Of a stretch of DNA of 64,000 nucleotides, positions 5,594 through 64,000 are shown in pieces. Both the position numbers and the translations under genes were made by a program. The notes below the pieces were generated by a model that had not been told where the DNA came from, ran no database searches, and was given only the letters and a program-made list of their open reading frames with translations. Positions within the stretch are counted from its first letter, which is position 1, and the number at the start of each line of letters is the position of its first letter. Source of the DNA: Bryobacterales bacterium (lineage in GTDB: Bacteria > Acidobacteriota > Terriglobia > Bryobacterales > UBA6623); contig OZ251486.1 in NCBI GenBank assembly GCA_965242705.1, forward strand, positions 202,736 to 266,735, read 5' to 3'.

Positions 5594-5648
5594 CTCTCGG
5601 TTGGTTTTCGGGGTCGTATTTCGGGGGCGGGCGGTGGCGGAAGGGAGA

Positions 5649-7454: not shown

Positions 7455-7599
7455 GGCGCCCTCCTTTTTTTCCCGCGCCCCGCGCGGCAAACGGCGCAGG
7501 CGGCCGACTCGAACCCGGAGCCGGGCGATCGTCGATTCTGTAACGGGGGCAGGCGCAGAAGCCCGCGCCTGTCTTCAGTTTGACAGCAGCGCAGCCGGC

Positions 7600-13669: not shown

Positions 13670-15179
13670 CCCGGCGCATCACCTTGAAGGCGACGTCGCC
13701 GCCCGCTTCGATCGACTTGCGGATCTCGCCGATATCCGCGGCGGCGGAGACCGCCTGCCGATTCATGGCGACGATGACGTCGCCCTCGGCCAAGCCGATG
13801 TCGGCGCTGAACGAACCGGGTTCGACCGCGGTGATCAACACGCCGCCGTCCGCTTCGTAGTTCATCTCGCGGCGCATGCGTTCGGTCATATCTTGCACGG
13901 TAATGCCGAACTCGACGCGCGTTTCGTCGTCTTCCGGCGGCTCTCCGCCGTTGTCGAAACGTCCGCTGAAGAGTTTTTCCCGATCGGCGATGGTGATGTT
14001 GACGGTCATCGGCTTGCCGCCGCGGATCAGCTTGACCGGCACGGTGGAGCCGACGCCCGTGGCGGCGACGACTTCGATCAGGTGGTCGCCGTCGCGGATG
14101 GCTACCCCGTCGATATGGGTGATGACGTCTTCGGCCTGCATGCCGGCCCTTTCAGCCGGGCCGCCTTCGACCACCTGGCTGACGAAGATGCCGCCCTCGC
14201 CGTCGCCGTAGGTGCGCAGCAGTGCCGGGTCTTGCGCGCTGCTGAACTGGATGCCGATCGAGCCGCGCGCTACGCGGCCGTACTTGATGATCTGGTTATA
14301 CACATTGACCGCGATGTTCGACGCCAGAGCGAAGCCCAGCCCGTCGTAGCCGCCGGTGCGCGAGATGATCGCCGTGTTGATGCCGATGATTTCGCCGCGG
14401 ACGTTGAGCAGCGGCCCGCCGCTGTTGCCCGGGTTGATGGCCGCATCGGTCTGCAGGAACTTCTGGAACGGACGGGTGAACGCGGCCATATTGACTTCGC
14501 GCGATTTGGCGCTGATGATGCCCGCCGTCACCGTTTCCCTGTAGCCGAAAGGCGAGCCGATGGCGATCGCCCAGTCGCCGACGTTGACCACGTCGGAATT
14601 GCCGATGGGCGCCGCCTCCATGTCTTTCTTGCCGGCTACGTAGATCACCGCCAGATCGGTTTCCTCGTCCGCGCCGATAATCTTGGCTTCGTATTTCTTG
14701 TCGTCGTCCACGAAGCGCACGTGAATCCGGTCGGCGTCGGCGACGACGTGCTGATTGGTGATGATGTAGCCCTTGGCATCGACGACCACGCCGGAACCCT
14801 CGCCGCGGCCCCGGCGCCGCGGGTCGGGCTGGTCGGGAGGCGAACCGAAAAAGCGGCGGAAGAAATCTTGCATCTCGCCCGGAATGTCTCCGCCCGGGTC
14901 TTGCCTGCGTCGTTCCGTACGCGATTCGGGCAGCGATTCCACCTCGATGTTGACCACGGACGGGCGGACTCGCCGGGCGATTTCGGAGAACTGGTTTTCG
15001 ACCGGCTCGCTCTTGGGCACGGTCAGCGGCGCGGCGTCGGAAACGGGTTCGCCTTCCGGCGCGGCCCCGACCGGGTCGGAAACGACCGTGCCGATGAGAA
15101 TGCCGATCAGCAGCGTACACAGGATGAGCGCCGCCGGCAGGAATTTCCTTTGCAAGAGTTGTTCGCGCATTGTGGTCAT
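13611..15179 (-). CDS. htrA: periplasmic serine endoprotease, HtrA/DegP/DegQ family (trypsin-like domain plus two PDZ domains)
   Basis: The sequence MTTMREQLLQRKFLPAALILCTLLIGILIG (membrane anchor or signal) has the catalytic triad contexts TNQHVV, DLAVI and GNSGGPLLN, followed by two PDZ-like regions. The start is the ATG at 15179 (another lies at 15170). The upstream 103 codons of the track ORF are Arg/Ala-rich read-through. Confidence 0.9.
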   Translation of the reverse strand: MTTMREQLLQRKFLPAALILCTLLIGILIGTVVSDPVGAAPEGEPVSDAAPLTVPKSEPVENQFSEIARRVRPSVVNIEVESLPESRTERRRQDPGGDIPGEMQDFFRRFFGSPPDQPDPRRRGRGEGSGVVVDAKGYIITNQHVVADADRIHVRFVDDDKKYEAKIIGADEETDLAVIYVAGKKDMEAAPIGNSDVVNVGDWAIAIGSPFGYRETVTAGIISAKSREVNMAAFTRPFQKFLQTDAAINPGNSGGPLLNVRGEIIGINTAIISRTGGYDGLGFALASNIAVNVYNQIIKYGRVARGSIGIQFSSAQDPALLRTYGDGEGGIFVSQVVEGGPAERAGMQAEDVITHIDGVAIRDGDHLIEVVAATGVGSTVPVKLIRGGKPMTVNITIADREKLFSGRFDNGGEPPEDDETRVEFGITVQDMTERMRREMNYEADGGVLITAVEPGSFSADIGLAEGDVIVAMNRQAVSAAADIGEIRKSIEAGGDVAFKVMRRVNSTQWRPFYFAGVLGREN

Positions 15180-15285
15180 CGCTCTGTATCTTTGACGCGC
15201 CGCCCGGCGCAGGGTAACCCGAAACTGAAAATCATTATATCCGCGGCGCCGATGCGCGCGCAAAAAACGCAAGGCGGCGGCGCCC

Positions 15286-16077
15286 CTATGCCGCGGCGGC
15301 AGGCTTGCCGGAAGCCCTGAGCCACAAGTACGCGCCGAGCGCGCCGAGCGCCAGGGCGGCGACCTGCGTCGTGCTGACGATTCCGCCGGCGATGATCGTG
15401 CGCGAGCCTTCCGCGCGGAAGAACTCCACGGCGAAGCGGAACGCCGCGTAGAGCAGCAGATAGCGTCCCAGGATGGCGCCGGGGGCATGCGGCCGCGCCC
15501 AGGCGCGCAGCAGATAGACCCCGATCAGCGCGGCGCCGGCGGCCTCGTAGAGTTGCGTCGGATGCAGATGGACGCCCAGCGGCGCGCCGGTGAACTCGTG
15601 CGCGGCGGGGTCGCTGAAAACGACGGCCCACGGGGCATCCGTTTCGCGGCCCCAGCAGCAGCCGGCCGCGAAGCAGCCGAGCCGCCCGACGGCGTGCCCG
15701 AAAGCTGCGGCCGGCGCCAGCACGTCGGCCGTCGGCAGCCAGGGCAGGCCGACTTTCCCGGCGTACGCGGCGGCAACGGCCAGCGCCGCCAGCAGGCCGC
15801 CGTAGAAGACGCCCCCGGCGCGCAAGGCCGAGAGCGAAAACAGGCGGCTGAAGTCGGCGGAATAGTAGCCCCAGTTGTTGAAAATCATGAACAGCTTCGC
15901 GCCGACGATCGCGGCGATGGCGATAAAGACGCCCAGATTGGCGACCTTTTCCGGGTCGAGCCGCGAGCGCCCGGCCAGCCGTCCGGCGATCTTGAGCCCG
16001 AGCAACAGGCCGGCCGCCACCAGCACGCCGTAAGTCGGAACGTCGAAAGAGCCGATGGAAAACAGGCGCGGATACAT
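15286..16077 (-). CDS. lgt: prolipoprotein diacylglyceryl transferase
   Basis: 263-aa ORF with an ATG start. The sequence MYPRLFSIGSFDVPTYGVLVAAGLLLG..., GHAVGRLGCFAAGCCWG and HPTQLYEA are typical Lgt signatures, and the protein is polytopic and hydrophobic. Confidence 0.93.
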   Translation of the reverse strand: MYPRLFSIGSFDVPTYGVLVAAGLLLGLKIAGRLAGRSRLDPEKVANLGVFIAIAAIVGAKLFMIFNNWGYYSADFSRLFSLSALRAGGVFYGGLLAALAVAAAYAGKVGLPWLPTADVLAPAAAFGHAVGRLGCFAAGCCWGRETDAPWAVVFSDPAAHEFTGAPLGVHLHPTQLYEAAGAALIGVYLLRAWARPHAPGAILGRYLLLYAAFRFAVEFFRAEGSRTIIAGGIVSTTQVAALALGALGAYLWLRASGKPAAAA

Positions 16078-16165
16078 GGGCGTTACCGGAATCGAGCGGC
16101 CAAAAGAGTAGTTTGCGCGTACAGCGCAGGGAAGGTCAACCGCGGCGGGCCGCGCCCAGCCGCCG

Positions 16166-16609
16166 CTATCGGGCGCCGCGAAGCTCTTCCACGCTCCAGT
16201 ATTCGCTGCGGCCCGCGTTCTGCTTGCGGACGCGGCGCACTTGCGCCTCGGAAACCGGCTTGCCCTCAGAGTTGAAGGCCGTTCGGACGAACGAGAGCAG
16301 GTCGGCGACCGTCTTGTCGGAAAGGATGCTGCCGAAACCCGGCATCTCGCGGTCGTAAACCTTGCCGTGCAATTCGATGCGCCCGCGCACGCCGTGCAGG
16401 ACGATCCGGATCAGCGGCTCCGCCTCGCCGTCAACCCAGGGCGAGTCGTGCAGCGGCGGGGCCTCGCCCATTTCCTGCCCGTCGTAGCGGTGGCAGGCGG
16501 CGCAATAGTCGCGGAACGTTTTCTCGCCCGGTCTCTCGGCGGCCTGCGCCGCGGCCGGGCAAACGGCGGCAATCGCCAGGGAAACCCAAAACGGCGCGGC
16601 GCGGCTCAT
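16166..16609 (-). CDS. small secreted c-type cytochrome (single CxxCH)
   Basis: From the ATG at 16609 the product reads MSRAAPFWVSLAIAAVCPAAAQAAERPGEKTFRDYCAACHRYDG...MPGFG, with a signal peptide, a CAACH haem motif and a distal Met-Pro. The start overlaps the lspA stop (ATGA at 16606-16609). The longer track ORF beginning at 16711 is rejected. Confidence 0.8.
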   Translation of the reverse strand: MSRAAPFWVSLAIAAVCPAAAQAAERPGEKTFRDYCAACHRYDGQEMGEAPPLHDSPWVDGEAEPLIRIVLHGVRGRIELHGKVYDREMPGFGSILSDKTVADLLSFVRTAFNSEGKPVSEAQVRRVRKQNAGRSEYWSVEELRGAR

Positions 16610-17106
16610 GGGGTTTCGCCTGCGGCCGGCTTCGGCTTGCGGAACGACCCGAGCAGCAGCAGCGCGGCCCCGACCGTGATCGCGCTGTCGGCGACGTTGA
16701 ATGCCGGCCAATGGTACGCGCCGACGTGAACATCGAGAAAATCGACCACGTAACCGTAGGCGAAACGGTCGTAAAGATTGCCCGCCGCGCCGGCGAGCAC
16801 GAGCGTCAACGCCGGCGTCGAAGCGCGTCCGGCGTCCGGCTGTCGGGCGAACAGGAAGACGATCAGCACGACCGCGGCAAGGGAAACCGCCGGCAGGACG
16901 ACGTTGCGCACCAACGGGGGCGAATCGGCGAACAGGCTGAAGGCGAGGCCGGTGTTGCGCGTATGCACGATGTCGAAAAACCCTTCGACGACCGTTTTCG
17001 AGGAATGGAGCGGCAGCCGCTCGGCAACCTCGATCTTCGACCAGCGGTCGAGCGCCGCGATTGCTGCGCCCAAGCCGCCGTAGATCGCATAGGGCGACAC
17101 GCTCAA
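16606..17106 (-). CDS. lspA: lipoprotein signal peptidase (signal peptidase II)
   Basis: 166-aa ORF with a TTG start at 17106. It contains the conserved blocks HTRNTGLAFS, NLYDRF, VVDFLD and WPAFNVAD, and has four hydrophobic segments. Confidence 0.9.
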   Translation of the reverse strand: MSVSPYAIYGGLGAAIAALDRWSKIEVAERLPLHSSKTVVEGFFDIVHTRNTGLAFSLFADSPPLVRNVVLPAVSLAAVVLIVFLFARQPDAGRASTPALTLVLAGAAGNLYDRFAYGYVVDFLDVHVGAYHWPAFNVADSAITVGAALLLLGSFRKPKPAAGETP

Positions 17107-17173
17107 GCGGTCAGTCTATCGCACGGGGCCGCCGCGGCTGCGATTGCCCCGCGGTTTTGCAGGCGCGTTCGAC

Positions 17174-17202
17174 TTGTAATGCGAAATGCATTCAGTCATA
17201 AT
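17174..17202 (+). promoter_or_regulatory. candidate sigma70-type promoter upstream of groES (TTGTAA-N17-CATAAT)
   Basis: TTGTAA lies at 17174-17179 and CATAAT at 17197-17202 with a 17-nt spacer, about 170 nt upstream of the groES ATG in the lspA/groES divergent intergenic region. This is a pattern match only. Confidence 0.3.
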
Positions 17203-17370
17203 GGAAGGTTCGAGTTCCGGCTTGGAACCGGATCCGGGAGCGCATTGCGGCAGGGGCGAGCATCCTGCGCATCGGCCGTTTTCCCGGAGCAAAAAACGCA
17301 CAGAGTTTCATTACAGTCCCGCGGCGTTCGCGCGCGCGGGCGAACCCAGACACTTGAGGAGGAAAATACT

Positions 17371-17661
17371 ATGGCACTGCGGCCCTTGGGCAACCGCGTC
17401 GTGGTCGAACGCGTGGAAGAAGAAGAACAGGTTTCGGGGGGCATCATCATCCCCGATTCCGCGAAGGAGAAAGGCCAGACGGCAAAAGTGATTGCCGTCG
17501 GCCCGGGCTCCAGGAAAGACGACGGCGGGGTCGTGCCGCTCGATGTCGGCGTCGGCGACACCGTGCTGATCGGCAAGTACGCCGGCAACGACGTCACTGT
17601 TGACGGCAACGATTACACGATCCTGAACGAGGACGAAATCCTCGGCATCGTCGAAGGGTAG
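17371..17661 (+). CDS. groES: co-chaperonin GroES
   Basis: 96 aa reading MALRPLGNRVVVERVEEEEQVSGGIIIPDSAKEKGQTAKVIAVGPG...ILGIVEG. A GAGGAGG ribosome-binding site lies at 17356-17362. The rest of the track ORF 16711..17661 is upstream read-through. Confidence 0.97.
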   Translation: MALRPLGNRVVVERVEEEEQVSGGIIIPDSAKEKGQTAKVIAVGPGSRKDDGGVVPLDVGVGDTVLIGKYAGNDVTVDGNDYTILNEDEILGIVEG

Positions 17662-19272
<1,611 letters not shown>

Positions 19273-19290
19273 TTTCCGACTGCCCGCAGC

Positions 19291-19327
19291 GCCCGGGGCC
19301 GCCGGCCGGCGGCCCGGGGCTTTCGTT
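19291..19327 (+). terminator. probable intrinsic terminator of groESL
   Basis: GC-rich hairpin at 19291-19320 (GCCCGGGGCCGCC GGCC GGCGGCCCGGGGC, 12 of 13 stem positions paired around a 4-nt loop), immediately followed by TTTCGTT. It begins 19 nt after the groEL stop. Confidence 0.6.
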
Positions 19328-19357
19328 CCGGCAAGCGCGCGGCGGAACTTGCCGATC

Positions 19358-20695
19358 ATGCGAAATTTGTCCGTTCGCTCGACGCTCCTTCTGTGGGTTT
19401 TCCCGGCGCTTTTGGCGCTTTCGGCGGGCGCTCCCCGGCTGCCCGCCCAGTCGTCCGACGCCGACCCGGGCAAGGATTTTCGGGCTTCGCTTCCCGCCTG
19501 GCTGGATATCCGCCCCGAAGCCCGCGCCCGCTACGAGGGACGCTCCGGCAATGCGTTCGAAATCGACGTCGCCAACAGCCTGCAGACGCGCTATCTGCTC
19601 GGGGTCGGCATACGACCGCACCGCCGTTTCCGCGTTTTCGCGCAAGGGATGGATGCGCGCATGCCGACCGCCGAGCGGCGGCAAGTCACGGCGCGCTACC
19701 GCGACGTGTTCGACTTGCGCGAGGCTTACGTGGAGATCGGCGATCCCGACAAAGACCCGTTCCGCGTCATCGTCGGCCGCCAGCTTTTGATCTACGGCTC
19801 GCAGCGGTTGATCTCGCATGCGAACTGGAGCAACTCCCGGCGCGCCTTCGACGCCGCGCGCCTGCGCTTCGAGAACAAGGCGGTCAGGATCGACGGCTTC
19901 ACCGGCTCGGTCGTCAACGATTTCGCCGACCTGCCCGACCGCTCCGACTACGGCGACGGCTTCCACGGCGTGTATTCCACCTGGAAGCGCGCGATACCGG
20001 GCGCCGAGATGGACGTTTATCTGCTCTACCGCACCCGGCGGCGGGTCATCGACGAGTTAGGACGCGCGGGCGACAGCGATCTGTGGGCGCCGGGACTGCG
20101 CATCGCCGGCAAGGCTCCGGCGGGCATGGACTACGAAATCGAAACCCTGATCCAGCGCGGCCGGCGGGCGCAGTCGCCGATCTCGGCCTGGTCTGCGTTC
20201 GTCGAGGCGGGCCGGCGCTTCTCAAGCCGGCCGGCGAAGCCGCGGCTTTTCTTTCTCTACCAGTACGCTTCGGGCGACGCGGACCCGACGGATGGGAAAT
20301 TCGGCACGCACGACCAGTTCTTCCCGGCCAACCACCGCCACCGCGGCATGCTTGACGTCATCGGCTACCGCAATCTCGAGGATTTCGGGGGCGGCGTCGA
20401 GGCCGCCCCGAGCGGCAAGCTCTCGCTGCGTCTGCAAATCGACTCGTACCGCTTGGCGAGCCGCCATGACGCCCACTATACTTTCGGCGGACAGGTGCTC
20501 GTTCCCCGCGCCGCCGGCGGCGCGCGCAGCCGCCGAATCGGCTATGAATGCGACTTTTCGGCGGACTACCGGCTCAATGCGTTCACCACGCTCTCGGCCG
20601 GGGTCGGGCGGCTTTTCCGCGGCGGTTTCCTGAAGCTGCACTCGAATATCGAATCTTCGACTTTCGGTTACGCGGCGATCGAATTCAAGCCTTGA
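19358..20695 (+). CDS. alginate export family outer-membrane beta-barrel protein
   Basis: From the ATG at 19358 the product reads MRNLSVRSTLLLWVFPALLALSAGAP, with a signal peptide. It contains REAYVEIGD...VGRQLLIYGSQRLISHANWSNSRRAFDAARL, which matches the GRQxLxYGxxRLIxxxxWxNxxRxFDG core of the Alginate_exp family, and ends in aromatic residues (AAIEFKP). The track start at 19349 is a TTG. Confidence 0.7.
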   Translation: MRNLSVRSTLLLWVFPALLALSAGAPRLPAQSSDADPGKDFRASLPAWLDIRPEARARYEGRSGNAFEIDVANSLQTRYLLGVGIRPHRRFRVFAQGMDARMPTAERRQVTARYRDVFDLREAYVEIGDPDKDPFRVIVGRQLLIYGSQRLISHANWSNSRRAFDAARLRFENKAVRIDGFTGSVVNDFADLPDRSDYGDGFHGVYSTWKRAIPGAEMDVYLLYRTRRRVIDELGRAGDSDLWAPGLRIAGKAPAGMDYEIETLIQRGRRAQSPISAWSAFVEAGRRFSSRPAKPRLFFLYQYASGDADPTDGKFGTHDQFFPANHRHRGMLDVIGYRNLEDFGGGVEAAPSGKLSLRLQIDSYRLASRHDAHYTFGGQVLVPRAAGGARSRRIGYECDFSADYRLNAFTTLSAGVGRLFRGGFLKLHSNIESSTFGYAAIEFKP

Positions 20696-24806: not shown

Positions 24807-24998
24807 GGAAGGCGCGGAGAATAAGGGGGAGAGCGATGAGCCGGCGGACGTTTGCGGATATGGAGTACGAAGGGAAGAAAAAACAGACGAGGCGGGAGAA
24901 GTTTCTGGGGCGGATGGAGGCGTTGATTCCCTGGCAGCGGCTGGAGGAGCGCATCCGCCCGTATTACCCGCAAGCGGGGCGGGGGCGGCGAACGAACT
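24807..24998 (+). mobile_element. IS5-family insertion sequence remnant (left terminal inverted repeat plus the 5' end of the transposase gene), truncated at the CRISPR boundary
   Basis: GGAAGGCGCGGAGAATAAGGGGGA at 24807 resembles the IS5 terminal inverted repeat as I recall it (GGAAGGTGCGAATAAGCGGGGA). Twenty-nine nt later an ATG opens an IS5/InsH-type (DUF772) transposase N-terminus. Homology stops near 24988, about 10 nt before the first CRISPR repeat. No right end and no DDE domain are present. Confidence 0.75.
24836..24991 (+). pseudogene. truncated IS5-family (DDE_Tnp_1/DUF772) transposase; only about the first 52 codons remain
   Basis: The product MSRRTFADMEYEGKKKQTRREKFLGRMEALIPWQRLEERIRPYYPQAGRGRR matches the conserved N-terminal pattern FADxEYxxKxKxTRREKFLxEMExxxPWxxLxxxIxPxYPKAGxGRP of IS5-group transposases. 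The reading frame then runs straight into CRISPR repeat sequence (…TNCFNGAGVFRPRK). Confidence 0.75.
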
Positions 24999-27900
24999 GC
25001 TTCAATGGGGCCGGGGTCTTTCGACCCCGGAAATACTCGGGAAAAACTCAATGAATTCTTGCTCATCAGCGCTTCAATGGGGCCGGGGTCTTTCGACCCC
25101 GGAAATCAGTACTACAAGGTTACGACGCGCTGGAATCCATGTGCTTCAATGGGGCCGGGGTCTTTCGACCCCGGAAATTCACTGCCCCGCCGGGGCGGCG
25201 CAACCCGCCGCCCCGCTTCAATGGGGCCGGGGTCTTTCGACCCCGGAAATGGGACCAGCTCCTCGCGCATGCAGCGCAAGGGACTGCTTCAATGGGGCCG
25301 GGGTCTTTCGACCCCGGAAATAACGCCGGCCTCGTTCGCCGCGTTATGCACCAACAGGCTTCAATGGGGCCGGGGTCTTTCGACCCCGGAAATAAATAGG
25401 TAAATTCCGAGTTCAACTCGAATTCCACCTGCTTCAATGGGGCCGGGGTCTTTCGACCCCGGAAATCCGCCGCCGGATGCTCGGCCTCAGCTGATCCCAT
25501 ACGCTTCAATGGGGCCGGGGTCTTTCGACCCCGGAAATCATCTGCGGGGGGGGCGATCGCCCCCCCCACCGCAGCTTCAATGGGGCCGGGGTCTTTCGAC
25601 CCCGGAAATGGCAGCCGACTTCGCTAAAAGAACTTCGCCTAGTGGCTTCAATGGGGCCGGGGTCTTTCGACCCCGGAAATCTGCGCGGATTCAAGGCTTT
25701 ACAGATGCCGAGTCCACGCTTCAATGGGGCCGGGGTCTTTCGACCCCGGAAATGGCTGTGCAGGATCCCGTTCCCGAACTGGTTGCTCGTGCTTCAATGG
25801 GGCCGGGGTCTTTCGACCCCGGAAATAAGAAGATACAAACAATACGAACTTGCGACAGGCAAGCTTCAATGGGGCCGGGGTCTTTCGACCCCGGAAATCG
25901 GCCGCGCGCTGATCGCCGACTCGGCGAATACCGGGCTTCAATGGGGCCGGGGTCTTTCGACCCCGGAAATGGGCGGAGAGGTCGCGGATGCTGATTCCGG
26001 CAGAGAGCTTCAATGGGGCCGGGGTCTTTCGACCCCGGAAATATGCGGTCAGCTTCGATGTTTTTCCGGGCGCGGTCTTGCTTCAATGGGGCCGGGGTCT
26101 TTCGACCCCGGAAATACCAGCAAGAAACGCAAATTGCCCGTTCGCAAAACAGCTTCAATGGGGCCGGGGTCTTTCGACCCCGGAAATGGACTGACCCGCC
26201 GGGCGCGAAACTCCTCCTCTCCGGCTTCAATGGGGCCGGGGTCTTTCGACCCCGGAAATGTGGCCGGCGACGCTTGGGGTAAGTACCAAGCGCGGCTTCA
26301 ATGGGGCCGGGGTCTTTCGACCCCGGAAATCCGGCGAGGTCAACGCCGCGCTGAAACGCCTCGCCGAGCTTCAATGGGGCCGGGGTCTTTCGACCCCGGA
26401 AATGCCATCGCGCGCATCCAATCCATCGCCCGGCACGCCGGCTTCAATGGGGCCGGGGTCTTTCGACCCCGGAAATCGGAGATTCCGCGGCCGACCCCGC
26501 GGAATCGAGCCGGGCTTCAATGGGGCCGGGGTCTTTCGACCCCGGAAATGCCGGCGACATGCGCATCGTATCCGATGGCGGCAAGCTTCAATGGGGCCGG
26601 GGTCTTTCGACCCCGGAAATGCCCGCGCCCTGGTCGATCGCGTCATCGCCGCCATTGCTTCAATGGGGCCGGGGTCTTTCGACCCCGGAAATCAGGAGCG
26701 CGTGCGTTTCGCCGCGCTCCAGAATGCCGCTTCAATGGGGCCGGGGTCTTTCGACCCCGGAAATAAGATCGGATCAGCGCCGCCTCGCCCGACGAAATCG
26801 CTTCAATGGGGCCGGGGTCTTTCGACCCCGGAAATCAAGCTCCGCGAAGAGATCGGAAAATGGCCGGGGAGCTTCAATGGGGCCGGGGTCTTTCGACCCC
26901 GGAAATCAGTGAAATCGCTTTTTTTCCGTCCGGCCGCAGCCAGCTTCAATGGGGCCGGGGTCTTTCGACCCCGGAAATATCGCCCAGGGACACCTAGCAA
27001 TAGCGGAATACAACGCTTCAATGGGGCCGGGGTCTTTCGACCCCGGAAATGCGGCGCCCTCATAATCCTCGGCCTCGATGTCGATGCTTCAATGGGGCCG
27101 GGGTCTTTCGACCCCGGAAATCTCGTACTGCCGCACGATGCCATCGAGATCGCCCGGCGCTTCAATGGGGCCGGGGTCTTTCGACCCCGGAAATTCACGG
27201 CTTGCGCGACATGATCCCCGTCGAAGATCAGCTTCAATGGGGCCGGGGTCTTTCGACCCCGGAAATCGCCAGCGAGGCCGAAACGTCGGAAAATTTCAGC
27301 GGGCTTCAATGGGGCCGGGGTCTTTCGACCCCGGAAATGCGAGATCGAGTTTTCGGCGGCGGACGGATCGGCCGAGCTTCAATGGGGCCGGGGTCTTTCG
27401 ACCCCGGAAATTCGCGCAGATGGCCAAGGAAGATTTGCTCGCCGACGCGCTTCAATGGGGCCGGGGTCTTTCGACCCCGGAAATAGCTTGCCTGTGGAAA
27501 TCGTCACTCGAATCGATCGAGCTTCAATGGGGCCGGGGTCTTTCGACCCCGGAAATGTACACATGGCGGCGGCAAGAGACCCGGAACAGACGCTTCAATG
27601 GGGCCGGGGTCTTTCGACCCCGGAAATATCCCCCCCCCCTATACGGGTGATATTGTTCAACCGGCTTCAATGGGGCCGGGGTCTTTCGACCCCGGAAATT
27701 TGACTAAGGACAGTTGGCATATCTTCAAACACAGGCTTCAATGGGGCCGGGGTCTTTCGACCCCGGAAATCTATTGGGTGGTTTTCGATTCCCACCTGAT
27801 GACAATGCTTCAATGGGGCCGGGGTCTTTCGACCCCGGAAATCGAACGCCGTTGTTGATATCCTCATCGATAAGATGGGCTTCAATGGGGCCGGGGTCTT

Positions 27901-28600
27901 TCGACCCCGGAAATCGGCGGAGTCTATTATTGCTCGACGCCGCCCGTAACGGCTTCAATGGGGCCGGGGTCTTTCGACCCCGGAAATCTCAAAGGGAGCG
28001 GGGTAAAGGTTTTACCTATCGCGCTTCAATGGGGCCGGGGTCTTTCGACCCCGGAAATCTTCTCCTAACTGTCCATTTAGCGACGACCTGGAAGAGGCTT
28101 CAATGGGGCCGGGGTCTTTCGACCCCGGAAATCGGAGTCTGTGAGCTCAACGCCGCCCGTAACGTAAGGCTTCAATGGGGCCGGGGTCTTTCGACCCCGG
28201 AAATGAGTTTTAGGAAGATAACTATTTCCATCACCACCACGCTTCAATGGGGCCGGGGTCTTTCGACCCCGGAAATACGTGCACACGGCCGCCCGTGCAG
28301 GTTCGCGAACGCGCTTCAATGGGGCCGGGGTCTTTCGACCCCGGAAATTTGCCTAACAGCCTATTCGAGGCGACTTGGCAATAGGGCTTCAATGGGGCCG
28401 GGGTCTTTCGACCCCGGAAATCCCGCCTTATATCCGGCCCATAGGGGCTTTGTCAACGCTTCAATGGGGCCGGGGTCTTTCGACCCCGGAAATAAAACAA
28501 TGAACGACAAAATGATCGACGCCGTAATGCTTCAATGGGGCCGGGGTCTTTCGACCCCGGAAATGAGGCGACTCGGCAATAGGAAGGAAACTATTATGAC

Positions 28601-29934
28601 ACTTCAATGGGGCCGGGGTCTTTCGACCCCGGAAATTCCTTGCCCCACCACCCGGCCTTCTCGAATTTTTCCTCACTTCAATGGGGCCGGGGTCTTTCGA
28701 CCCCGGAAATATCTACGACCAGGCGCGGGCCAACGTCGTCGTCGTACTTCAATGGGGCCGGGGTCTTTCGACCCCGGAAATACGCCGTCCGTATCGACCT
28801 GGCCGGCGCCGGCGAGGTACTTCAATGGGGCCGGGGTCTTTCGACCCCGGAAATGGGCTGCGGCTGGGTCATGTGGCCTTTCTGGGGGCGACTTCAATGG
28901 GGCCGGGGTCTTTCGACCCCGGAAATATTCGATCTCACCCCGAAGAATTTTCCCGATGTGTCACTTCAATGGGGCCGGGGTCTTTCGACCCCGGAAATCA
29001 TTTTTTCCCGCAACTGCTTGATGCAGTCCGGAATACTTCAATGGGGCCGGGGTCTTTCGACCCCGGAAATGTTTTCCACTGGTGCTTGTTGATGGTGCAC
29101 CCTCCAAACTTCAATGGGGCCGGGGTCTTTCGACCCCGGAAATTTCCGCCGCCAAGGGGGATTTCGCGCGGCGGAGCCGCACTTCAATGGGGCCGGGGTC
29201 TTTCGACCCCGGAAATGCCCTGGGTCGGATTTTCGAAAAATCGATGGATCAGACTTCAATGGGGCCGGGGTCTTTCGACCCCGGAAATAAAGTTTATCAG
29301 AATCATCCGTAGATAATTCTGATACTTCAATGGGGCCGGGGTCTTTCGACCCCGGAAATCTCTCTTTCCCGCTAAGCGCGATTCCCCGGCGTCTCACTTC
29401 AATGGGGCCGGGGTCTTTCGACCCCGGAAATGCCCAATGGCCAAGATGAGCGGAAACACCTTCGCCACTTCAATGGGGCCGGGGTCTTTCGACCCCGGAA
29501 ATTACCGACTGTATTTGTGTCGCCTTCATAAGATATTGACTTCAATGGGGCCGGGGTCTTTCGACCCCGGAAATAACCCACGTTGTCGGAATCGACAAGA
29601 AGGGTAACAGAACTTCAATGGGGCCGGGGTCTTTCGACCCCGGAAATCCCGGAATGAATCTTGTGCTTAGGTATAAGATTATTACTTCAATGGGGCCGGG
29701 GTCTTTCGACCCCGGAAATAGGTTATGGCGCGGGCGAAGCCCGCCTTGATAGCCGACTTCAATGGGGCCGGGGTCTTTCGACCCCGGAAATAAGAAGGAA
29801 GGAACAAACAATGATTGAACGCGAAATACTTCAATGGGGCCGGGGTCTTTCGACCCCGGAAATGGGCGGGCGAAGCCCGCCTCGATAACCGCAACAAAAC
29901 TTCAATGGGGCCGGGGTCTTTCGACCCCGGAAAT
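28601..29934 (-). repeat. block of 19 consecutive variant CRISPR repeats (plus-strand position 1 G->A, giving ACTTCAATGG...)
   Basis: The repeats starting at 28601, 28675, 28746, 28819, 28891, 28963, 29035, 29108, 29181, 29253, 29324, 29396, 29467, 29539, 29612, 29684, 29756, 29828 and 29899 all begin with A. The flanking repeats at 28529 and 29970 begin with G, as did every other repeat I read. Confidence 0.9.
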
Positions 29935-30224
29935 ATGCTCCGCCTCATCCGCGCCGATGCGGTGAGCAAGCTTCAATGGGGCCGGGGTCTTTCGACCCCG
30001 GAAATAGCGCCCGCCACAGGGCGGCCACGGTTGGCGCATTCGCTTCAATGGGGCCGGGGTCTTTCGACCCCGGAAATGACGGCGCTGACTGTCCGGGCGT
30101 TGGAGACGGAAGCGGGCTTCAATGGGGCCGGGGTCTTTCGACCCCGGAAATTCCGATGCATACGCTCACCCTCGATTCCGGCCACCCGGCTTCAATGGGG
30201 CCGGGGTCTTTCGACCCCGGAAAT

Positions 30225-30332
30225 CAATCCCAGCCCGACTTCGACGACGAAGACATCTTCGCTTCAATGGGGCCGGGGTCTTTCGACCCCGGAAATCAAT
30301 CCCAGCCCGACTTCGACGACGAAGACATCTTC
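30225..30332 (-). repeat. tandem duplication of one spacer-repeat unit inside the array
   Basis: The spacer CAATCCCAGCCCGACTTCGACGACGAAGACATCTTC occurs at 30225-30260 and again, identically, at 30297-30332, in adjacent units. Confidence 0.95.
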
Positions 30333-33300
30333 GCTTCAATGGGGCCGGGGTCTTTCGACCCCGGAAATGGGGGGCGGTGAGGTGAAGGTGTTGATAGCGT
30401 CAGGCTTCAATGGGGCCGGGGTCTTTCGACCCCGGAAATGCGCCGGGGGTCGATTGTGATAATTGCGGTTGCCGTGCTTCAATGGGGCCGGGGTCTTTCG
30501 ACCCCGGAAATGACTGGATTGCCATGCAGCAGCAAAAGCAAGCCGCCGGCTTCAATGGGGCCGGGGTCTTTCGACCCCGGAAATGCCTGACGCCATGCCC
30601 CATCCGAAGCAATACATCGTCGCTTCAATGGGGCCGGGGTCTTTCGACCCCGGAAATCTGCATTGCGCCATTCCGTGGAGTCCAAGCCGTGGCGGGCTTC
30701 AATGGGGCCGGGGTCTTTCGACCCCGGAAATCGGGGGCGGTCGTTCGGGCGGCCGCTCGGCGGTCGCGCTTCAATGGGGCCGGGGTCTTTCGACCCCGGA
30801 AATCCAAGCAGCCCGATGGGCCGCCAGCGAAAACCAAAAGGCTTCAATGGGGCCGGGGTCTTTCGACCCCGGAAATGCCTTCGAGCGGCGCGAATCGCAA
30901 GGCGCAATCACCGCTTCAATGGGGCCGGGGTCTTTCGACCCCGGAAATGAAGAAATGGAAACTGATCTTCCAAACCCAAAACTGCTTCAATGGGGCCGGG
31001 GTCTTTCGACCCCGGAAATGCGCCGGCAGCCATCCAAGCGGCGCTGAAGCGCCTCGCTTCAATGGGGCCGGGGTCTTTCGACCCCGGAAATCAGGTCGGA
31101 CGGCTCAACTCCGTCTTGAATCCCTCGCTTCAATGGGGCCGGGGTCTTTCGACCCCGGAAATCAGCGGCTCCCCAAGCACCAGAGACGCCGGATCGTAAG
31201 CTTCAATGGGGCCGGGGTCTTTCGACCCCGGAAATCGGCTTGGGGGTCGGCGTAATCGGAGACGGCTTCGTCGCTTCAATGGGGCCGGGGTCTTTCGACC
31301 CCGGAAATGCGTGTCCCATCCCAAGCAAACGAGTACCGGGTCGATGCTTCAATGGGGCCGGGGTCTTTCGACCCCGGAAATGGCGCCAACTGCGACCGGC
31401 CGCCCCATGACGCCGGTTGCTTCAATGGGGCCGGGGTCTTTCGACCCCGGAAATGCGTTCAACCGCATTTGATTTTGGCTGATGAGCCTTCGGCTTCAAT
31501 GGGGCCGGGGTCTTTCGACCCCGGAAATCGGGGGGTGTCGCATGATCCGCCGCGGGACCGTAATCGCTTCAATGGGGCCGGGGTCTTTCGACCCCGGAAA
31601 TATAGCCCAAGCGGTCTATCGCGGCTACGCGGTCATCGCTTCAATGGGGCCGGGGTCTTTCGACCCCGGAAATGGGCTTTGGCGATCGCGAGGCGGCGGA
31701 GGCCTGGGGCGCTTCAATGGGGCCGGGGTCTTTCGACCCCGGAAATGGGAAAGAAAAATGACGAATCGCGGCGAAGCGGTGGCTTCAATGGGGCCGGGGT
31801 CTTTCGACCCCGGAAATGCCGAGATGTTCCGTTTTCAGGAGTTAGGCAGCCGCGCTTCAATGGGGCCGGGGTCTTTCGACCCCGGAAATCCGCTGGTCGG
31901 GCTGTGGGCCGACAGCAACCGCTTCGCTTCAATGGGGCCGGGGTCTTTCGACCCCGGAAATATCCGGCGCTTGCGGCCCGGCGCCGCTGCCGGGCGGGCT
32001 TCAATGGGGCCGGGGTCTTTCGACCCCGGAAATCACCAGCGGCGCTTGCAGCGCGGAAACGCTCGACTGGCTTCAATGGGGCCGGGGTCTTTCGACCCCG
32101 GAAATGCCTGGAGATAAGCAATGAGACGTACGTATACGTCGTGCTTCAATGGGGCCGGGGTCTTTCGACCCCGGAAATTTGGTCTTGGTGTCGGTCTTGG
32201 CGGCGGCCGCATACGGCTTCAATGGGGCCGGGGTCTTTCGACCCCGGAAATGCGATGCGGGCGAGCAGCGCCGCTTTCTCCGTTTGGCTTCAATGGGGCC
32301 GGGGTCTTTCGACCCCGGAAATCTGCCCAGTCGCCTTTGGTATGCCGAAGGCAGATACGCTTCAATGGGGCCGGGGTCTTTCGACCCCGGAAATGTGCAG
32401 GGCGCAGAGAAACCCGGCGGTGGCAAGATAGCTTCAATGGGGCCGGGGTCTTTCGACCCCGGAAATGTTCAGCGCCGCATCATCGCGGCGCGAACAACCG
32501 GCCCGGCTTCAATGGGGCCGGGGTCTTTCGACCCCGGAAATGCGCCGTATCGGAAACGGAAAAGATGCCAAATCCGATAGCTTCAATGGGGCCGGGGTCT
32601 TTCGACCCCGGAAATCAGTCGAGCGTTTCCGCGCTGCAAGCGCCGGCGGTGCTTCAATGGGGCCGGGGTCTTTCGACCCCGGAAATACGCGCATTGGCGG
32701 AACGAGTTCGTGTAGGTACGAGCTTCAATGGGGCCGGGGTCTTTCGACCCCGGAAATCAGAAAATGATCGGGCAGCTAAACCAGCTTCGGCAGGCTTCAA
32801 TGGGGCCGGGGTCTTTCGACCCCGGAAATGCGCTCATAGACAGTAAGCTGCACGCGCCCGTCATCGCTTCAATGGGGCCGGGGTCTTTCGACCCCGGAAA
32901 TCGCCGCCTGCTGCGCGTTGCCGCGCCGCTTCGCGGTGCTTCAATGGGGCCGGGGTCTTTCGACCCCGGAAATTCCAACTGCAGGCGCGATTTGACTTGC
33001 GGCGCGATGCTTCAATGGGGCCGGGGTCTTTCGACCCCGGAAATGCCTTCCCCCTTGCCCTCCGCGCCGTCGGAGGCCAAGCTTCAATGGGGCCGGGGTC
33101 TTTCGACCCCGGAAATCGCCATTGCCGGCGTTACGGCTGCGATGCTTGCGGGTGCTTCAATGGGGCCGGGGTCTTTCGACCCCGGAAATGGCGGCGAAGC
33201 AGGCCGAGATCGAAGCGCTGGAAGGCGCTTCAATGGGGCCGGGGTCTTTCGACCCCGGAAATGCCGAATCCGCGCGTTGCCAACTCCCGCATATACTCCG

Positions 33301-36300: not shown

Positions 36301-39300
36301 ATCGTCTGCTTCGGCGAATGTTCCGTAATGCAATTGCTTCAATGGGGCCGGGGTCTTTCGACCCCGGAAATGTGGCCTTTGCAGCGGATAACGACGGCGA
36401 CTTCGCCGCTTCAATGGGGCCGGGGTCTTTCGACCCCGGAAATGCGGCTCCTTCTGCCAATGCCAGGGATTACCCTGCCCCGCTTCAATGGGGCCGGGGT
36501 CTTTCGACCCCGGAAATGCGGTCAGCGCCGTCCGCGAAGAAGCGGACGACGCCGCTTCAATGGGGCCGGGGTCTTTCGACCCCGGAAATGGGTTGATCCA
36601 CGGCACTCGCGCCGCTTGGCTCTCGCTTCAATGGGGCCGGGGTCTTTCGACCCCGGAAATATGCGGCTGCGCTCCAGGTCCTCGGCTCCGCGCTCGAGCT
36701 TCAATGGGGCCGGGGTCTTTCGACCCCGGAAATGCGACGCTGCCAAAGCGGTACTGGACGCGCGCCGAGGGCTTCAATGGGGCCGGGGTCTTTCGACCCC
36801 GGAAATGGCGCGGTTCGGCGCCCCGCCCGCATTCCCAAGACCAGCTTCAATGGGGCCGGGGTCTTTCGACCCCGGAAATTCGCTGGCTATCGCCGGCGCG
36901 CTGAGCGGCGCTGTCGCTTCAATGGGGCCGGGGTCTTTCGACCCCGGAAATCTGCCGCCATGCCGGATTACTGGAAGGGCTGGGTGGAGCTTCAATGGGG
37001 CCGGGGTCTTTCGACCCCGGAAATGACGTGATGATCGCATGGGCCGGCGATCCCGCGCTGGCTTCAATGGGGCCGGGGTCTTTCGACCCCGGAAATGGTT
37101 CGTCGGCACACAATCAGGATAGCGCTTACGGCACGCTTCAATGGGGCCGGGGTCTTTCGACCCCGGAAATATCCGCTCGTGCGCCAACCAAAGACATCGC
37201 GGCTGCCGCTTCAATGGGGCCGGGGTCTTTCGACCCCGGAAATGCGACCGGCTACGGCATGGGCATGGCTGACCACCTTGCTTCAATGGGGCCGGGGTCT
37301 TTCGACCCCGGAAATTCGAAGACGGCTGGCAACAGGTCAAGGTCTCCGGCGCTTCAATGGGGCCGGGGTCTTTCGACCCCGGAAATGTCGCAACGGCTGC
37401 CGGTTACGCCGCGCGCTGCAAGGCTTCAATGGGGCCGGGGTCTTTCGACCCCGGAAATACGCGCCACATCACGGAACAAAACCCCGCGCTGTTGGGCTTC
37501 AATGGGGCCGGGGTCTTTCGACCCCGGAAATGCGCATTACGGAGCGCGGCGTGGATGCGGTTGCCGCGCTTCAATGGGGCCGGGGTCTTTCGACCCCGGA
37601 AATCTGCGTGGCGGTCACTACCGGAACGAATACGGCTTCGCTTCAATGGGGCCGGGGTCTTTCGACCCCGGAAATGCGCATCAACCTGCCCCTGTTGCCT
37701 CAGAACCAAGAGGCTTCAATGGGGCCGGGGTCTTTCGACCCCGGAAATATGGATGGGATCGGAAGCCCCGGCTGCGGTATCCGGCTTCAATGGGGCCGGG
37801 GTCTTTCGACCCCGGAAATATGATGTGCGCCAAGCCTTCGCACGGCCCGGCGCTGCTTCAATGGGGCCGGGGTCTTTCGACCCCGGAAATCAGTGGCAAA
37901 GCGGAGGCAACGTCAGCGCCGGATGGGCTTCAATGGGGCCGGGGTCTTTCGACCCCGGAAATGGGAGCGCTTGTTGCACTTTTCCAAAACCACAGACATG
38001 CTTCAATGGGGCCGGGGTCTTTCGACCCCGGAAATGCGCATGGTCGGTATCCGTAGTCAATGGGCTGGGGCGCTTCAATGGGGCCGGGGTCTTTCGACCC
38101 CGGAAATATGCCCTTGGTGACGGCTTCGGACAGCCAGTGCGTGCTTCAATGGGGCCGGGGTCTTTCGACCCCGGAAATCGGAACCACAGTCGCCGCTTGG
38201 CGGAAAGCAGCAAAGCTTCAATGGGGCCGGGGTCTTTCGACCCCGGAAATGGGTGCCTTTTGGCGCATGTTTAGAAGCAGCGTCCAGCTTCAATGGGGCC
38301 GGGGTCTTTCGACCCCGGAAATCTGAGGTTGACGGCCGTCATTTTGTGCGCTTTGGCGGCTTCAATGGGGCCGGGGTCTTTCGACCCCGGAAATGATTTT
38401 GGCGGCGGTCATTGGTCTTGCTCTCGGAAAGCTTCAATGGGGCCGGGGTCTTTCGACCCCGGAAATGAAAGACATCGAACGCGCCGAATGGGACGCCTAC
38501 GGCTTCAATGGGGCCGGGGTCTTTCGACCCCGGAAATACGACAAACCCGTACGCATTGTCTCGAATATCCAAGTGCTTCAATGGGGCCGGGGTCTTTCGA
38601 CCCCGGAAATGCCATCGCATCGGCCACCTCGATGACTTTCTTTGCGGCTTCAATGGGGCCGGGGTCTTTCGACCCCGGAAATGCGAATGGCGAAAAGCAT
38701 ATCGCGCCGTACTGCGGGCTTCAATGGGGCCGGGGTCTTTCGACCCCGGAAATCGGACGCGATGGGCGTTCGGGGAACCAACCGCAAGGCTTCAATGGGG
38801 CCGGGGTCTTTCGACCCCGGAAATGCGACAAATGCGACGATTTCTAATCCTCGCCACGCTGCTTCAATGGGGCCGGGGTCTTTCGACCCCGGAAATGCGT
38901 GTCCCATCCCAAGCAAACGAGTACCGGGTCGATGCTTCAATGGGGCCGGGGTCTTTCGACCCCGGAAATCAGCCGCCCGGCTTCCGTTGCCCATTGCAAC
39001 GGCCCGCTTCAATGGGGCCGGGGTCTTTCGACCCCGGAAATGGCGGACGCTTGGACGGCGCCGAGCGGGAGTTGAACGCTTCAATGGGGCCGGGGTCTTT
39101 CGACCCCGGAAATATGAGTCCTTCCTTTCGGTTATCTCCACCGCAGCCTGCTTCAATGGGGCCGGGGTCTTTCGACCCCGGAAATAAGGTCAACGCAAGC
39201 GTCGTTGACGGAATCCATGCGGCTTCAATGGGGCCGGGGTCTTTCGACCCCGGAAATCCCCGCGCCGGATCAGGTCCCGACCGACCAGGCCGAGCTTCAA

Positions 39301-40559: not shown

Positions 40560-40989
40560 GCTGATGGCGATTGCGATGCCGTCCGCCGCTGCAGCGCTTC
40601 AATGGGGCCGGGGTCTTTCGACCCCGGAAATGCGCCTGCCGCTGTCGCAACGGCTGCCGGTTCCGCCGCTTCAATGGGGCCGGGGTCTTTCGACCCCGGA
40701 AATATGATCTCGATGCTGTTGCTGATCTCCGCCAGCGAGCTTCAATGGGGCCGGGGTCTTTCGACCCCGGAAATGCTGATGGCGATTGCGATGCCGTCCG
40801 CCGCTGCAGCGCTTCAATGGGGCCGGGGTCTTTCGACCCCGGAAATGCGCCTGCCGCTGTCGCAACGGCTGCCGGTTCCGCCGCTTCAATGGGGCCGGGG
40901 TCTTTCGACCCCGGAAATATGATCTCGATGCTGTTGCTGATCTCCGCCAGCGAGCTTCAATGGGGCCGGGGTCTTTCGACCCCGGAAAT
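40560..40989 (-). repeat. tandem duplication of a three-unit (215-bp) spacer-repeat block inside the array
   Basis: The spacers GCTGATGGCGATTGCGATGCCGTCCGCCGCTGCAGC, GCGCCTGCCGCTGTCGCAACGGCTGCCGGTTCCGCC and ATGATCTCGATGCTGTTGCTGATCTCCGCCAGCGA (40560-40774 with their repeats) recur in the same order at 40775-40989. Confidence 0.95.
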
Positions 40990-61900: not shown

Positions 61901-64000
61901 CCAAGAAAGACGACCTGCTGCAGCGCTTGCACGGCTTCAATGGGGCCGGGGTCTTTCGACCCCGGAAATCGCCCGGCGCGGATCGCCGCGAACGACCGCG
62001 AAGCGGGCTTCAATGGGGCCGGGGTCTTTCGACCCCGGAAATCCGCCCGGCGCGGATCGCCGCGAACGACCGCGAAGCGGCTTCAATGGGGCCGGGGTCT
62101 TTCGACCCCGGAAATCCCAGCGAACCCGCCCAGACGCCCAGACCGCCGGCGCTTCAATGGGGCCGGGGTCTTTCGACCCCGGAAATCGTGCCGCCAAAGA
62201 TAAATAGACTAGCCGCCAAGCAGCTTCAATGGGGCCGGGGTCTTTCGACCCCGGAAATATCGTAGCCGCGCTGTCGAGCCGTGCCGCCAAAGATGCTTCA
62301 ATGGGGCCGGGGTCTTTCGACCCCGGAAATCCGTTGGTCTGCCAGGGCGGGGCAGCGAGGAGGATGCTGCTTCAATGGGGCCGGGGTCTTTCGACCCCGG
62401 AAATGCCTTGAAGCCGAACCGCAATCTGCGCATCAGCGGCGCTTCAATGGGGCCGGGGTCTTTCGACCCCGGAAATGCGACTGAACCCAATGAAACCCCT
62501 TGCAGTTTTGCCCGCTTCAATGGGGCCGGGGTCTTTCGACCCCGGAAATCCGCGAAGAGCCGCCTCGCCAAGCGGCTGCGAACCGCTTCAATGGGGCCGG
62601 GGTCTTTCGACCCCGGAAATTCGTTGCCGTGCGTTGGCGATGGCGGAATGCTTCCGGGCTTCAATGGGGCCGGGGTCTTTCGACCCCGGAAATATGGGCC
62701 GCTCGACCCGCCCCGCCGAAGCCCAAGCCGCTTCAATGGGGCCGGGGTCTTTCGACCCCGGAAATGAGCGGTGGGATGCCGATCTGCGCACGATTGTTGC
62801 CGGGCTTCAATGGGGCCGGGGTCTTTCGACCCCGGAAATAGCCGCCCAGACCGCGCGGGAACTCGTCGAAGAGCAGCTTCAATGGGGCCGGGGTCTTTCG
62901 ACCCCGGAAATGCGGCGGCTGCAAGGCGGCGGAACAAGTAGCCGGGGTTGCTTCAATGGGGCCGGGGTCTTTCGACCCCGGAAATCCCCTGGCCAAGTCC
63001 GACTTTCGCCGGGAGGCCGCGCTTCAATGGGGCCGGGGTCTTTCGACCCCGGAAATGCTGCGGTTTTTCGCACCATTGCCTGGGCTTCTTCGCGCTTCAA
63101 TGGGGCCGGGGTCTTTCGACCCCGGAAATTAGCTTGCGCCTCTATGAGGCTAACGATGGCATCCGTGCTTCAATGGGGCCGGGGTCTTTCGACCCCGGAA
63201 ATCACCTTGTCTTGCATTGCCATCGCGAAGTCCCGCCGGCTTCAATGGGGCCGGGGTCTTTCGACCCCGGAAATATCGCCGTCTCTGAACGCATCCGAGG
63301 CTTGGATGCTGCTTCAATGGGGCCGGGGTCTTTCGACCCCGGAAATGCCGTTGCGCACGGCACGCGATACACCGGAGCGGTCGGCTTCAATGGGGCCGGG
63401 GTCTTTCGACCCCGGAAATATCCACGGACTGAGCGAACGAGCCGACGTAGTCCTCGCTTCAATGGGGCCGGGGTCTTTCGACCCCGGAAATGACGCTGCG
63501 ACCGCAAGAGCATATCGAGGCCACGTTGCTTCAATGGGGCCGGGGTCTTTCGACCCCGGAAATGCCCGGCGCGGCTAACCCGCGCTAAGTCGGGCCGGAG
63601 CTTCAATGGGGCCGGGGTCTTTCGACCCCGGAAATCGGCTCCGAAGGCGCTGTTGCCGATTCTGGTGAACGTGCTTCAATGGGGCCGGGGTCTTTCGACC
63701 CCGGAAATGCGGGAGCCGACATCGCACGATGCCGGATGCAGCCTGCTTCAATGGGGCCGGGGTCTTTCGACCCCGGAAATCATCTTCCGCCCGCCTCAAA
63801 CGAACAGAAGGAGTCGGCTTCAATGGGGCCGGGGTCTTTCGACCCCGGAAATCTCCCAATTGGTGACCGAAGCCAGCTATGACGTACTGCTTCAATGGGG
63901 CCGGGGTCTTTCGACCCCGGAAATGCGTTGCCCGGCGCAACAGGCCGAAGATGGATGCCGCTTCAATGGGGCCGGGGTCTTTCGACCCCGGAAATTGGAT

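Follow-up and report, generated by a model that had tools for sequence, protein, structure and literature searches.

In the type I-F CRISPR system of Legionella pneumophila, a repeat variant that differs in its last base (…TTAGAAA versus …TTAGAAG) is copied into every new repeat once it has become leader-adjacent, as was shown experimentally, and has been read as a "molecular scar" of the history of the array (PMC7056967, Deecker & Ensminger 2020); repeat scars of this kind have been reviewed (PMC8047081). A block of 19 consecutive repeats with an altered last base is found in the CRISPR array carried by the 64,000-nt stretch of contig OZ251486.1 (positions 202,736 to 266,735 of the forward strand; assembly GCA_965242705.1 of a Bryobacterales bacterium) that is analyzed here and is referred to, at its full length, as the window. 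The phenomenon is already known, and the window is a new example of it in a type I-G-like array. The two cases share the affected position, the last base of the repeat, and a contiguous run that arises through leader-adjacent copying (19 repeats in the window; 42 followed by 176 in L003, one of the related arrays described below). They differ in that the Legionella variant reaches the leader by collapse of the array onto its terminal repeat and then converts all later repeats, whereas the run in the window is bounded on both sides, lies deep within an array of 540 repeats, and is followed on its leader side by repeats that are not variant. The block is very probably the historical record of a variant that was copied while leader-proximal, rather than a functional element.

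The array occupies positions 24999 to 63995 on the minus strand and comprises 540 repeats of 36 nt (in the sense of the CRISPR RNA ATTTCCGGGGTCGAAAGACCCCGGCCCCATTGAAGC; crRNA hereinafter) and 539 spacers of 34 to 40 nt, numbered here from the low end as R and S, respectively; it continues past the high end of the window, so that 540 is the lower limit and the array has at least that many repeats. Exact-match tabulation of the 35-nt repeat core CTTCAATGGGGCCGGGGTCTTTCGACCCCGGAAAT across the window gave 540 copies out of 540 that are identical, with zero mismatches or indels, and no degenerate repeat is present among them, the trailer end included. The locus thus has the constant-length direct repeats (540 identical cores, each with one additional junction base) and the spacers of similar length that define a CRISPR array. 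The junction base, which precedes the core and is position 1 of the plus-strand repeat, is G in 521 repeats, whereas 19 have A there, and the remaining 18,900 repeat bases show no substitution. The A-type repeats are numbers 51 to 69 and occur nowhere else in the window; this contiguity of 19 variants among 540 repeats has a chance probability of about 1e-32. They form a block on the minus strand at 28601 to 29934 (first variant base at 28601, last at 29899, and the end of repeat 69 at 29934), in which the last base of the crRNA-sense repeat is T rather than C. A sequence-only reading of the window had reported these 19 adjacent single-base changes between ordinary repeats, and the complete tabulation bore it out to the base, with all 19 contiguous and none scattered.

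The spacer that a variant base adjoins is always the one at lower coordinates, and the 19 spacers concerned (S50 to S68, 28565 to 29898, minus strand) are predicted to yield crRNAs with U at handle position -1. The older boundary of the block (28529 to 28600, minus strand) consists of the ordinary repeat R50 (28529-28564) and S50 (28565-28600), and the newer boundary (29935 to 30005, minus strand) consists of S69 (29935-29969) and the ordinary repeat R70 (29970-30005) and represents either a point of reversion or a recombination junction. Repeats 70 to 540 are all of the ordinary type, as are the leader-end repeats read in P0081, an open reading frame (ORF) of the source genome. The variant run therefore does not reach the leader, and a second event is needed to account for its end.

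The orientation of the array follows from P0081, which starts in the array repeats, crosses into the leader, and reaches the 3' end of cas1 in antisense; its reading direction places the leader beyond the high end of the window and makes the minus strand the crRNA sense. In relatives that carry the same repeat, the cas4/1 gene and a conserved leader lie on the side equivalent to the window's high end. On both grounds, the earlier assignment of the plus-strand G-to-A change to the last base of the minus-strand repeat, position -1 of the predicted handle, stands. The repeat is predicted to fold into an 8-bp stem with a GAAA loop (positions 5-24), followed by CCCC and then by ATTGAAGC, so that it has the 36-nt length, stable hairpin, 4-nt linker, and 8-nt 5' handle of type I-G repeats; the single-base change leaves the hairpin unaffected. 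The geometry agrees with published type I-G processing, where the Csb2 cleavage site lies 4 nt 3' of the hairpin and the resulting handle has 8 nt (PMC9638904). By this sequence-based assignment, the variant base is the predicted last repeat base and handle position -1, adjoining the PAM-proximal end of spacers 50 to 68 (PAM, protospacer adjacent motif).

The last repeat nucleotide in the type I-E system of Escherichia coli is derived from the PAM. It occupies the same position as the variant base, that of the repeat base abutting the PAM-proximal end of the spacer, and the usual junction base in the window's repeat family, C, is also the commonest base at position -1 of the protospacers. The sequence-only reading had listed templating by the incoming protospacer among three possible origins of the block. 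On this view, the block would date from a time when PAM or trimming specificity was altered and each prespacer supplied a T. Templating was assessed with protospacer 5' flanks that were rebuilt from overlapping spacer pairs among 1,925 spacers pooled from nine arrays. The 50 flanks obtained, which come from spacer overlaps and not from real protospacers, are TTN-like: a T occupies -3 in 27 of them and -2 in 32. The -1 base of the protospacer equals the junction base of the array in 22 of 40 flanks from arrays with C and in 4 of 10 from arrays with G. The former fraction is above the expectation from composition, so that the usual C could conceivably be PAM-derived on occasion. However, the arrays that gave these flanks are uniform at the junction base despite mismatches in 18/40 and 6/10 of the flanks, respectively, which shows that the repeat is the template for this base and that the prespacer does not contribute it; unlike in E. 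coli type I-E, a mismatch rate of 45-60% is seen in uniform arrays. Furthermore, block spacer 66 had G rather than T at -1 (in a run with a looser mismatch limit), and templating would not yield 19 consecutive T's with none elsewhere. Templating by the prespacer is therefore rejected as the source of the block, for which it retains a negligible probability. With every acquisition the leader-proximal repeat is copied over its full 36 bases, the last base included, and the premise that new repeats are copied from that repeat holds, with contiguous runs in both the window and L003. Hundreds of acquisitions in an uncultured organism thus confirm that duplication in a type I-G array extends over the entire leader-proximal repeat and takes in its last base.

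At the older edge, the history of the array is continuous. The sequence-only reading had noted a partial overlap of the block with a run of AT-rich spacers, which was right and can be given sharper limits: the AT-rich episode covers S38 to S67 (27700 to 29827; no strand applies), a stretch in which 13 of 31 spacers have a GC content below 50%, compared with 27 of 508 elsewhere (p = 2e-8); inside the block, such spacers number 8 of 19 (p = 2e-5). The episode straddles the older boundary, starting 12 spacers before the block, among ordinary repeats, and it ends approximately at the newer boundary, within about 1 spacer of that edge (roughly S64-S74 in the likelihood profile). In addition, S50, the first spacer with a variant repeat, overlaps the protospacer of S47 (28349-28385), which has an ordinary repeat, across 19 nt with 1 mismatch, and this overlap is a signature of renewed acquisition from an escape variant. 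The episode that spans the boundary and the target shared by S47 and S50 make the older edge continuous, and hence the change to T arose in place in this lineage. The episode suggests that spacers were taken over a long period, probably by primed acquisition, from a single AT-rich mobile element and from escape variants of it. Pairs of spacers with overlapping targets within it are S41/S44 (recognized by eye), S47/S50, and S66/S68.

The continuity of the older edge bears directly on the proposal that the 19 units were imported as a cassette, through two crossovers within repeats, from an array that is T-type throughout. Several observations are compatible with such an import: recombination between repeats does occur in the window array, other junction alleles exist in metagenomes of the same project (see L007 below), and the block spacers are AT-richer than average. 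However, the AT-rich episode opens 12 spacers before the block and S47 and S50 share a protospacer across its edge, two crossovers within 35-bp homologies would be required, and no T-type array (A-type on the plus strand) was found among about 120 array-derived ORFs searched in either strand, where the minus-strand query added three ORFs. Import of the whole cassette, as the sequence-only reading had offered it, is thus quite improbable, and what survives of the recombination proposal is a single junction at the newer edge.

The related arrays show that the junction base is also the position that changes elsewhere in the family. In L003 (array at 3805-19555), 42 ancestral repeats at the trailer end are followed by 176 with a changed junction base. 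Across this switch L003 retains a core allele of its own, located at the opposite repeat end, so that the change in L003 arose in place and has been copied since. The trailer flank of L003 is common to OY282420.1 and to L012 and L013, with almost no spacers in common, and this near absence of shared spacers despite the common flank indicates complete spacer turnover between close relatives. A lone "revertant" repeat in L003 (number 47) was only apparent: the long-read contig is noisy, and a TT-to-T indel had produced an alignment artefact. This repeat was excluded from the count of switches. In L007 (38-17267), which comes from the same metagenome project as L001, a contig sharing the window's flank, the repeats have the exact 35-nt core of the window and a third junction allele (C on the plus strand) in 238 of 238 repeats. 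No switch is seen in five further arrays, which are uniform. In total, 1,939 repeats in nine arrays contain three block-type switches, all of them at the junction base (p of about 8e-4 if all 36 sites are equal), and the junction base is the sole position with demonstrated lability among the approximately 1,900 repeats of the family; demonstrating this is what the present analysis adds to the scars already known. As separate observations, the L007 array has one period of 172 bp, and L010 (15-10823), from the same metagenome project, carries a loop variant (GAAA to AAAA, crRNA sense) in 150 of 150 repeats.

The simplest verbal model of the block, which was the first of the origins named by the sequence-only reading, is that of two ordinary point mutations in the leader-proximal repeat, C to T and then, 19 acquisitions later, an exact back-mutation, at a site that is not special. 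Both changes are transitions, and the block pattern is compatible with them. However, with zero substitutions in the other 18,900 repeat bases, the product mu*T is bounded at less than about 3e-4 per site over the lifetime of the array (assuming that internal repeats are neutral). Under this bound even a single mutation at the site is improbable, the probability of two being about 5e-8, and all 3 of the 3 block-type switches in the 1,939 family repeats fall at the junction base. The absence of substitutions elsewhere in the 540 repeats makes a point mutation with an exact back-mutation not credible and the site itself special. The sequence of mutation, 19-fold copying, and reversion can still hold, as long as ordinary point mutation, which we consider highly improbable here, is replaced by a process specific to the junction, which the sequence-only reading had not raised.

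Studies of repeat duplication in other systems suggest what such a process might be. Repeat duplication in E. coli type I-E is reportedly ruler-defined, with aberrant duplication sizes said to result from engineered repeat mutations. In the type I-B system of Haloarcula hispanica, the leader-distal cut is placed by a ruler, at a set distance from an internal motif, with the terminal sequence left unread, and repeats with substituted terminal bases are duplicated accurately (PMC4872114). Such a ruler accounts for the freedom of the last base to vary and shows in what way a mis-measurement by 1 nt could rewrite it. The aberrant duplications in H. hispanica came from engineered repeat mutations, whereas a natural off-by-one event is only inferred for the window. 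In type I-G in vitro, only 60-70% of spacer-side integrations occur at the correct site (PMC10504553). The block very probably arose as follows. At or just after the acquisition of spacer 50, the last base of the leader-proximal repeat changed from C to T (crRNA sense), and the following acquisitions copied the T, giving 19 variant units. The change hit the spacer-side integration site, which the integrase is expected to locate by measurement and not by reading the sequence; changes of this kind would happen during integration and be copied faithfully afterwards. The preferred route is an off-by-one attack on the spacer side, by which the first base of the incoming spacer would become the new terminal base of the repeat; alternatively, gap filling could go wrong at its final nucleotide. 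If the off-by-one reading is true, a T is expected next to the 5' end of the S50 protospacer and a C next to that of the S69 protospacer, the TT of the PAM would lie one base off its usual place, and giant natural arrays would be a readable log of integrase infidelity. The stronger proposal that such rewriting strikes the last repeat base in type I-G arrays about once in a thousand acquisitions, and that both edges of the block are such events, appears doubtful. With all switches at the spacer-side integration site, natural arrays are a test bed for the accuracy with which Cas4/1-Cas2 measures the repeat.

How the block ended is a separate question, and two answers deserve to be taken seriously. 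According to the first, which has close to an even chance, the T-type repeat that was then the first became linked, by homologous recombination between repeats, to a leader-side segment of C type that a sibling strain or a second array had contributed. According to the second, a real prospect that falls short of even, C returned through a further event at this labile base; given the lability, the prior for such a change in place during the 470 or more acquisitions that came later is roughly 15-25%. The variant base, being terminal, stays with its spacer wherever in the 35-nt core a crossover falls, so that a mosaic of repeat alleles is the expected signature of recombination between the arrays of different strains. 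For the window, this mechanism is proposed for the newer boundary only, and the search for a partner array found none. Exchange between repeats has left other traces in the array: S216-218 are repeated in tandem as S219-221 (40560-40953) and S73 is identical to S74 (30225-30332), both of which are unequal crossovers between repeats within the array. The end of the AT-rich run at the newer edge mildly favors a discontinuity there, by roughly 3-fold. Spacer length differs slightly between S1-68 and S69-539 (36.06 versus 36.32 nt; p = 0.04), a difference too weak to separate recombination from reversion, and GC content outside the AT-rich run shows no difference between the same two segments (p = 0.68). 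The greater length of the array relative to those of its relatives, the rearranged trailer (see below), and the slight difference in spacer length fit recombination at the newer edge.

A third way to obtain a block bounded on both sides is ectopic acquisition, in which the internal repeat downstream of S69 served as a secondary integration site with S69 as a pseudo-leader, and a variant that arose once was duplicated 19 times. Ectopic integration is known in other CRISPR types, and such a scenario has the merit that a single change explains both edges, the true first repeat remaining ordinary with no reversion needed. However, it predicts that S50-S68 are unrelated to the adjacent older spacers, whereas the AT-rich episode and a target are shared across that edge. 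In addition, the 3' end of S69 matches the repeat-proximal leader at only 2-3 of 7 positions, which is a weak test, as the leader is known from a protein translation only. Ectopic acquisition is thus highly improbable as the origin of the block.

An error of assembly, polishing, or base calling, or a chimera of two strains, would be suggested by the uncultured state of the source organism and by the odd junction of the trailer with a truncated insertion sequence (IS). Nevertheless, 19 identical and contiguous changes within 1.3 kb, preceded by bases that differ and form no common motif, are hardly the product of such errors when the other 521 repeats are perfect and free of homopolymer errors, and a chimera would require two precise switches inside the length of one long read. 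We therefore regard an artefact as very improbable.

The account preferred here, a junction-specific change that arose in place, was copied 19 times, and ended by recombination or by a second event, has several points to its disadvantage. The hot-spot statistic is based on three events. A raised rate of change at the junction base could be mimicked by relaxed selection at this base combined with deletions that promote variant internal repeats to the leader-proximal position, and the bound derived from the mutation clock fails if mutated internal repeats are purged. The coincidence of the end of the AT-rich run with the newer edge could also be explained if T weakened immunity and reversion ended a phage episode. 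No protospacers were found in the phage, plasmid, IMG/VR, and JGI collections for the block spacers, including S50, or for S69; the IMG/VR and metagenome queries were spacer 22-24-mers or the shared cores of S47/S50, S66/S68, S69, S60, S65, and S63. The block region as a whole matched nothing among phage records and gave one irrelevant match among plasmids, and the AT-rich mobile element targeted by S38-S67 was likewise not found in the phage, plasmid, IMG/VR, and metagenome collections queried. Finally, the sibling arrays offered neither the T-type array mentioned above nor, among the 120 array-derived ORFs listed, any spacer in common with the window.

The functional effect of the variant is expected to be small. 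The affected base lies outside the hairpin, position -1 corresponds to the N of the TTN PAM, and the 5' handle of the type I-G effector touches only Cas7.1 (PMC9638904), all of which makes a T at the last repeat base probably neutral. Type I-U has a TTN PAM, and interference is not licensed by the AGC that the repeat supplies (PMC6547450); judging from the published type I-G data, an effect of the AGC-to-AGT change in the window array on self-discrimination or interference is unlikely. Across the family, C, T, and G all appear to be tolerated at handle position -1. Repeat variants of this kind can be used as markers of time and of recombination in very long arrays; overall, the finding is a refinement and leaves the understanding of CRISPR systems unchanged.

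The assignment of the array to the type I-G (formerly I-U) repeat family, which remains at the level of type I-G-like, draws on the repeat and on the gene set read in relatives. The type I-G systems of Geobacter sulfurreducens, Thioalkalivibrio, and Methanosarcina, like the window array, have 36-nt repeats ending in …AGC, a hairpin followed by 4 nt and an 8-nt handle, spacers of about 36 nt, and a TTN-like PAM, which for the window array is indicated indirectly by the reconstructed flanks. The array in the window, with at least 540 repeats, is far larger than those of the studied type I-G systems and falls within the range of the largest CRISPR arrays described; arrays of relatives with the same repeat have 86-285 repeats, which makes that of the window two to five times longer. 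The type I-G gene set (Cas4-Cas1 fusion, Cas2, GSU0054, and GSU0053) is matched in the relatives but not in the window itself, as no cas genes are present within its 64 kb. The 25 kb to the left of the array carry housekeeping genes, including those for PSCyt/PSD1-type proteins, glycogen metabolism, GroES/EL, and the electron transfer flavoprotein (ETF).

These relatives were reached through ORFs predicted inside arrays: a protein search with an ORF of the block gave 129 such ORFs, of which 10 map within the window, while P0081 belongs to the same genome but lies outside it. The repeat 35-mer had no exact match in the species-representative genomes and the 31-mer core had none in the JGI metagenomes; a search with a shorter repeat core matched only OY282420.1. 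In the relatives carrying the window's repeat, the genes for Cas2 and the Cas4/Cas1 fusion sit directly upstream of the leader. The 285 repeats of OY282420.1 (L004-L006) are preceded by a 592-aa Cas4-Cas1 fusion (identified with Pfam) and a leader of about 190 bp. In L009, the array is followed by cas4/1, cas2, Cas_GSU0054, and Cas_GSU0053, and this is the only record with both GSU0053 and GSU0054 beside the array; L011, L012, and L013 have cas4/1, cas2, and Cas_GSU0053, with a gene between that has no annotation.

At the trailer end, the truncated 5' end of an IS5-like transposase gene (24837 to 24998, plus strand; about 53 codons) runs directly into the first repeat, and the junction reads …GGCGGCGA, then ACGAACT, then GCTTCAATGG. 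In L001 (1-240), a sibling metagenome contig with an identical ETF gene, the transposase is intact beyond the point at which that of the window is truncated. With a truncated transposase abutting the first repeat, the oldest end of the array is not its native end; as far as the sequence allows, this end appears to be either truncated and rearranged through the interior of the IS or misjoined. At the opposite, active end, the leader-proximal units back-calculated from P0081 are odd, with apparent spacers of about 42, 25, and 38 nt, then a 50-nt unit that holds a 14-nt partial repeat, then 24 nt, and finally just 5 nt ahead of the last repeat and the leader. Such an arrangement suggests aberrant integrations or deletions at the active end.

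Several further spacer relationships were seen in the array. The adjacent spacers S512 and S513 (61970-62079) come from the same protospacer with a shift of exactly 1 nt, an instance of natural 1-nt variability in prespacer trimming. S88 (31309-31345) is identical to S193 (38897-38933), and S435 (56386-56421) to S480 (59651-59686), while S440 (56751-56790) and S476 (59364-59399) derive from one protospacer trimmed to 40 and 36 nt, respectively. The inverted order of the S435/S480 and S440/S476 pairs indicates repeated independent acquisitions rather than block duplications. Overlapping protospacers are also found across genomes (the window, L003, L007, L009-L013, and OY282420.1), the pairs including one between window positions 30225-30332 and L003, so that these organisms must meet shared mobile elements.

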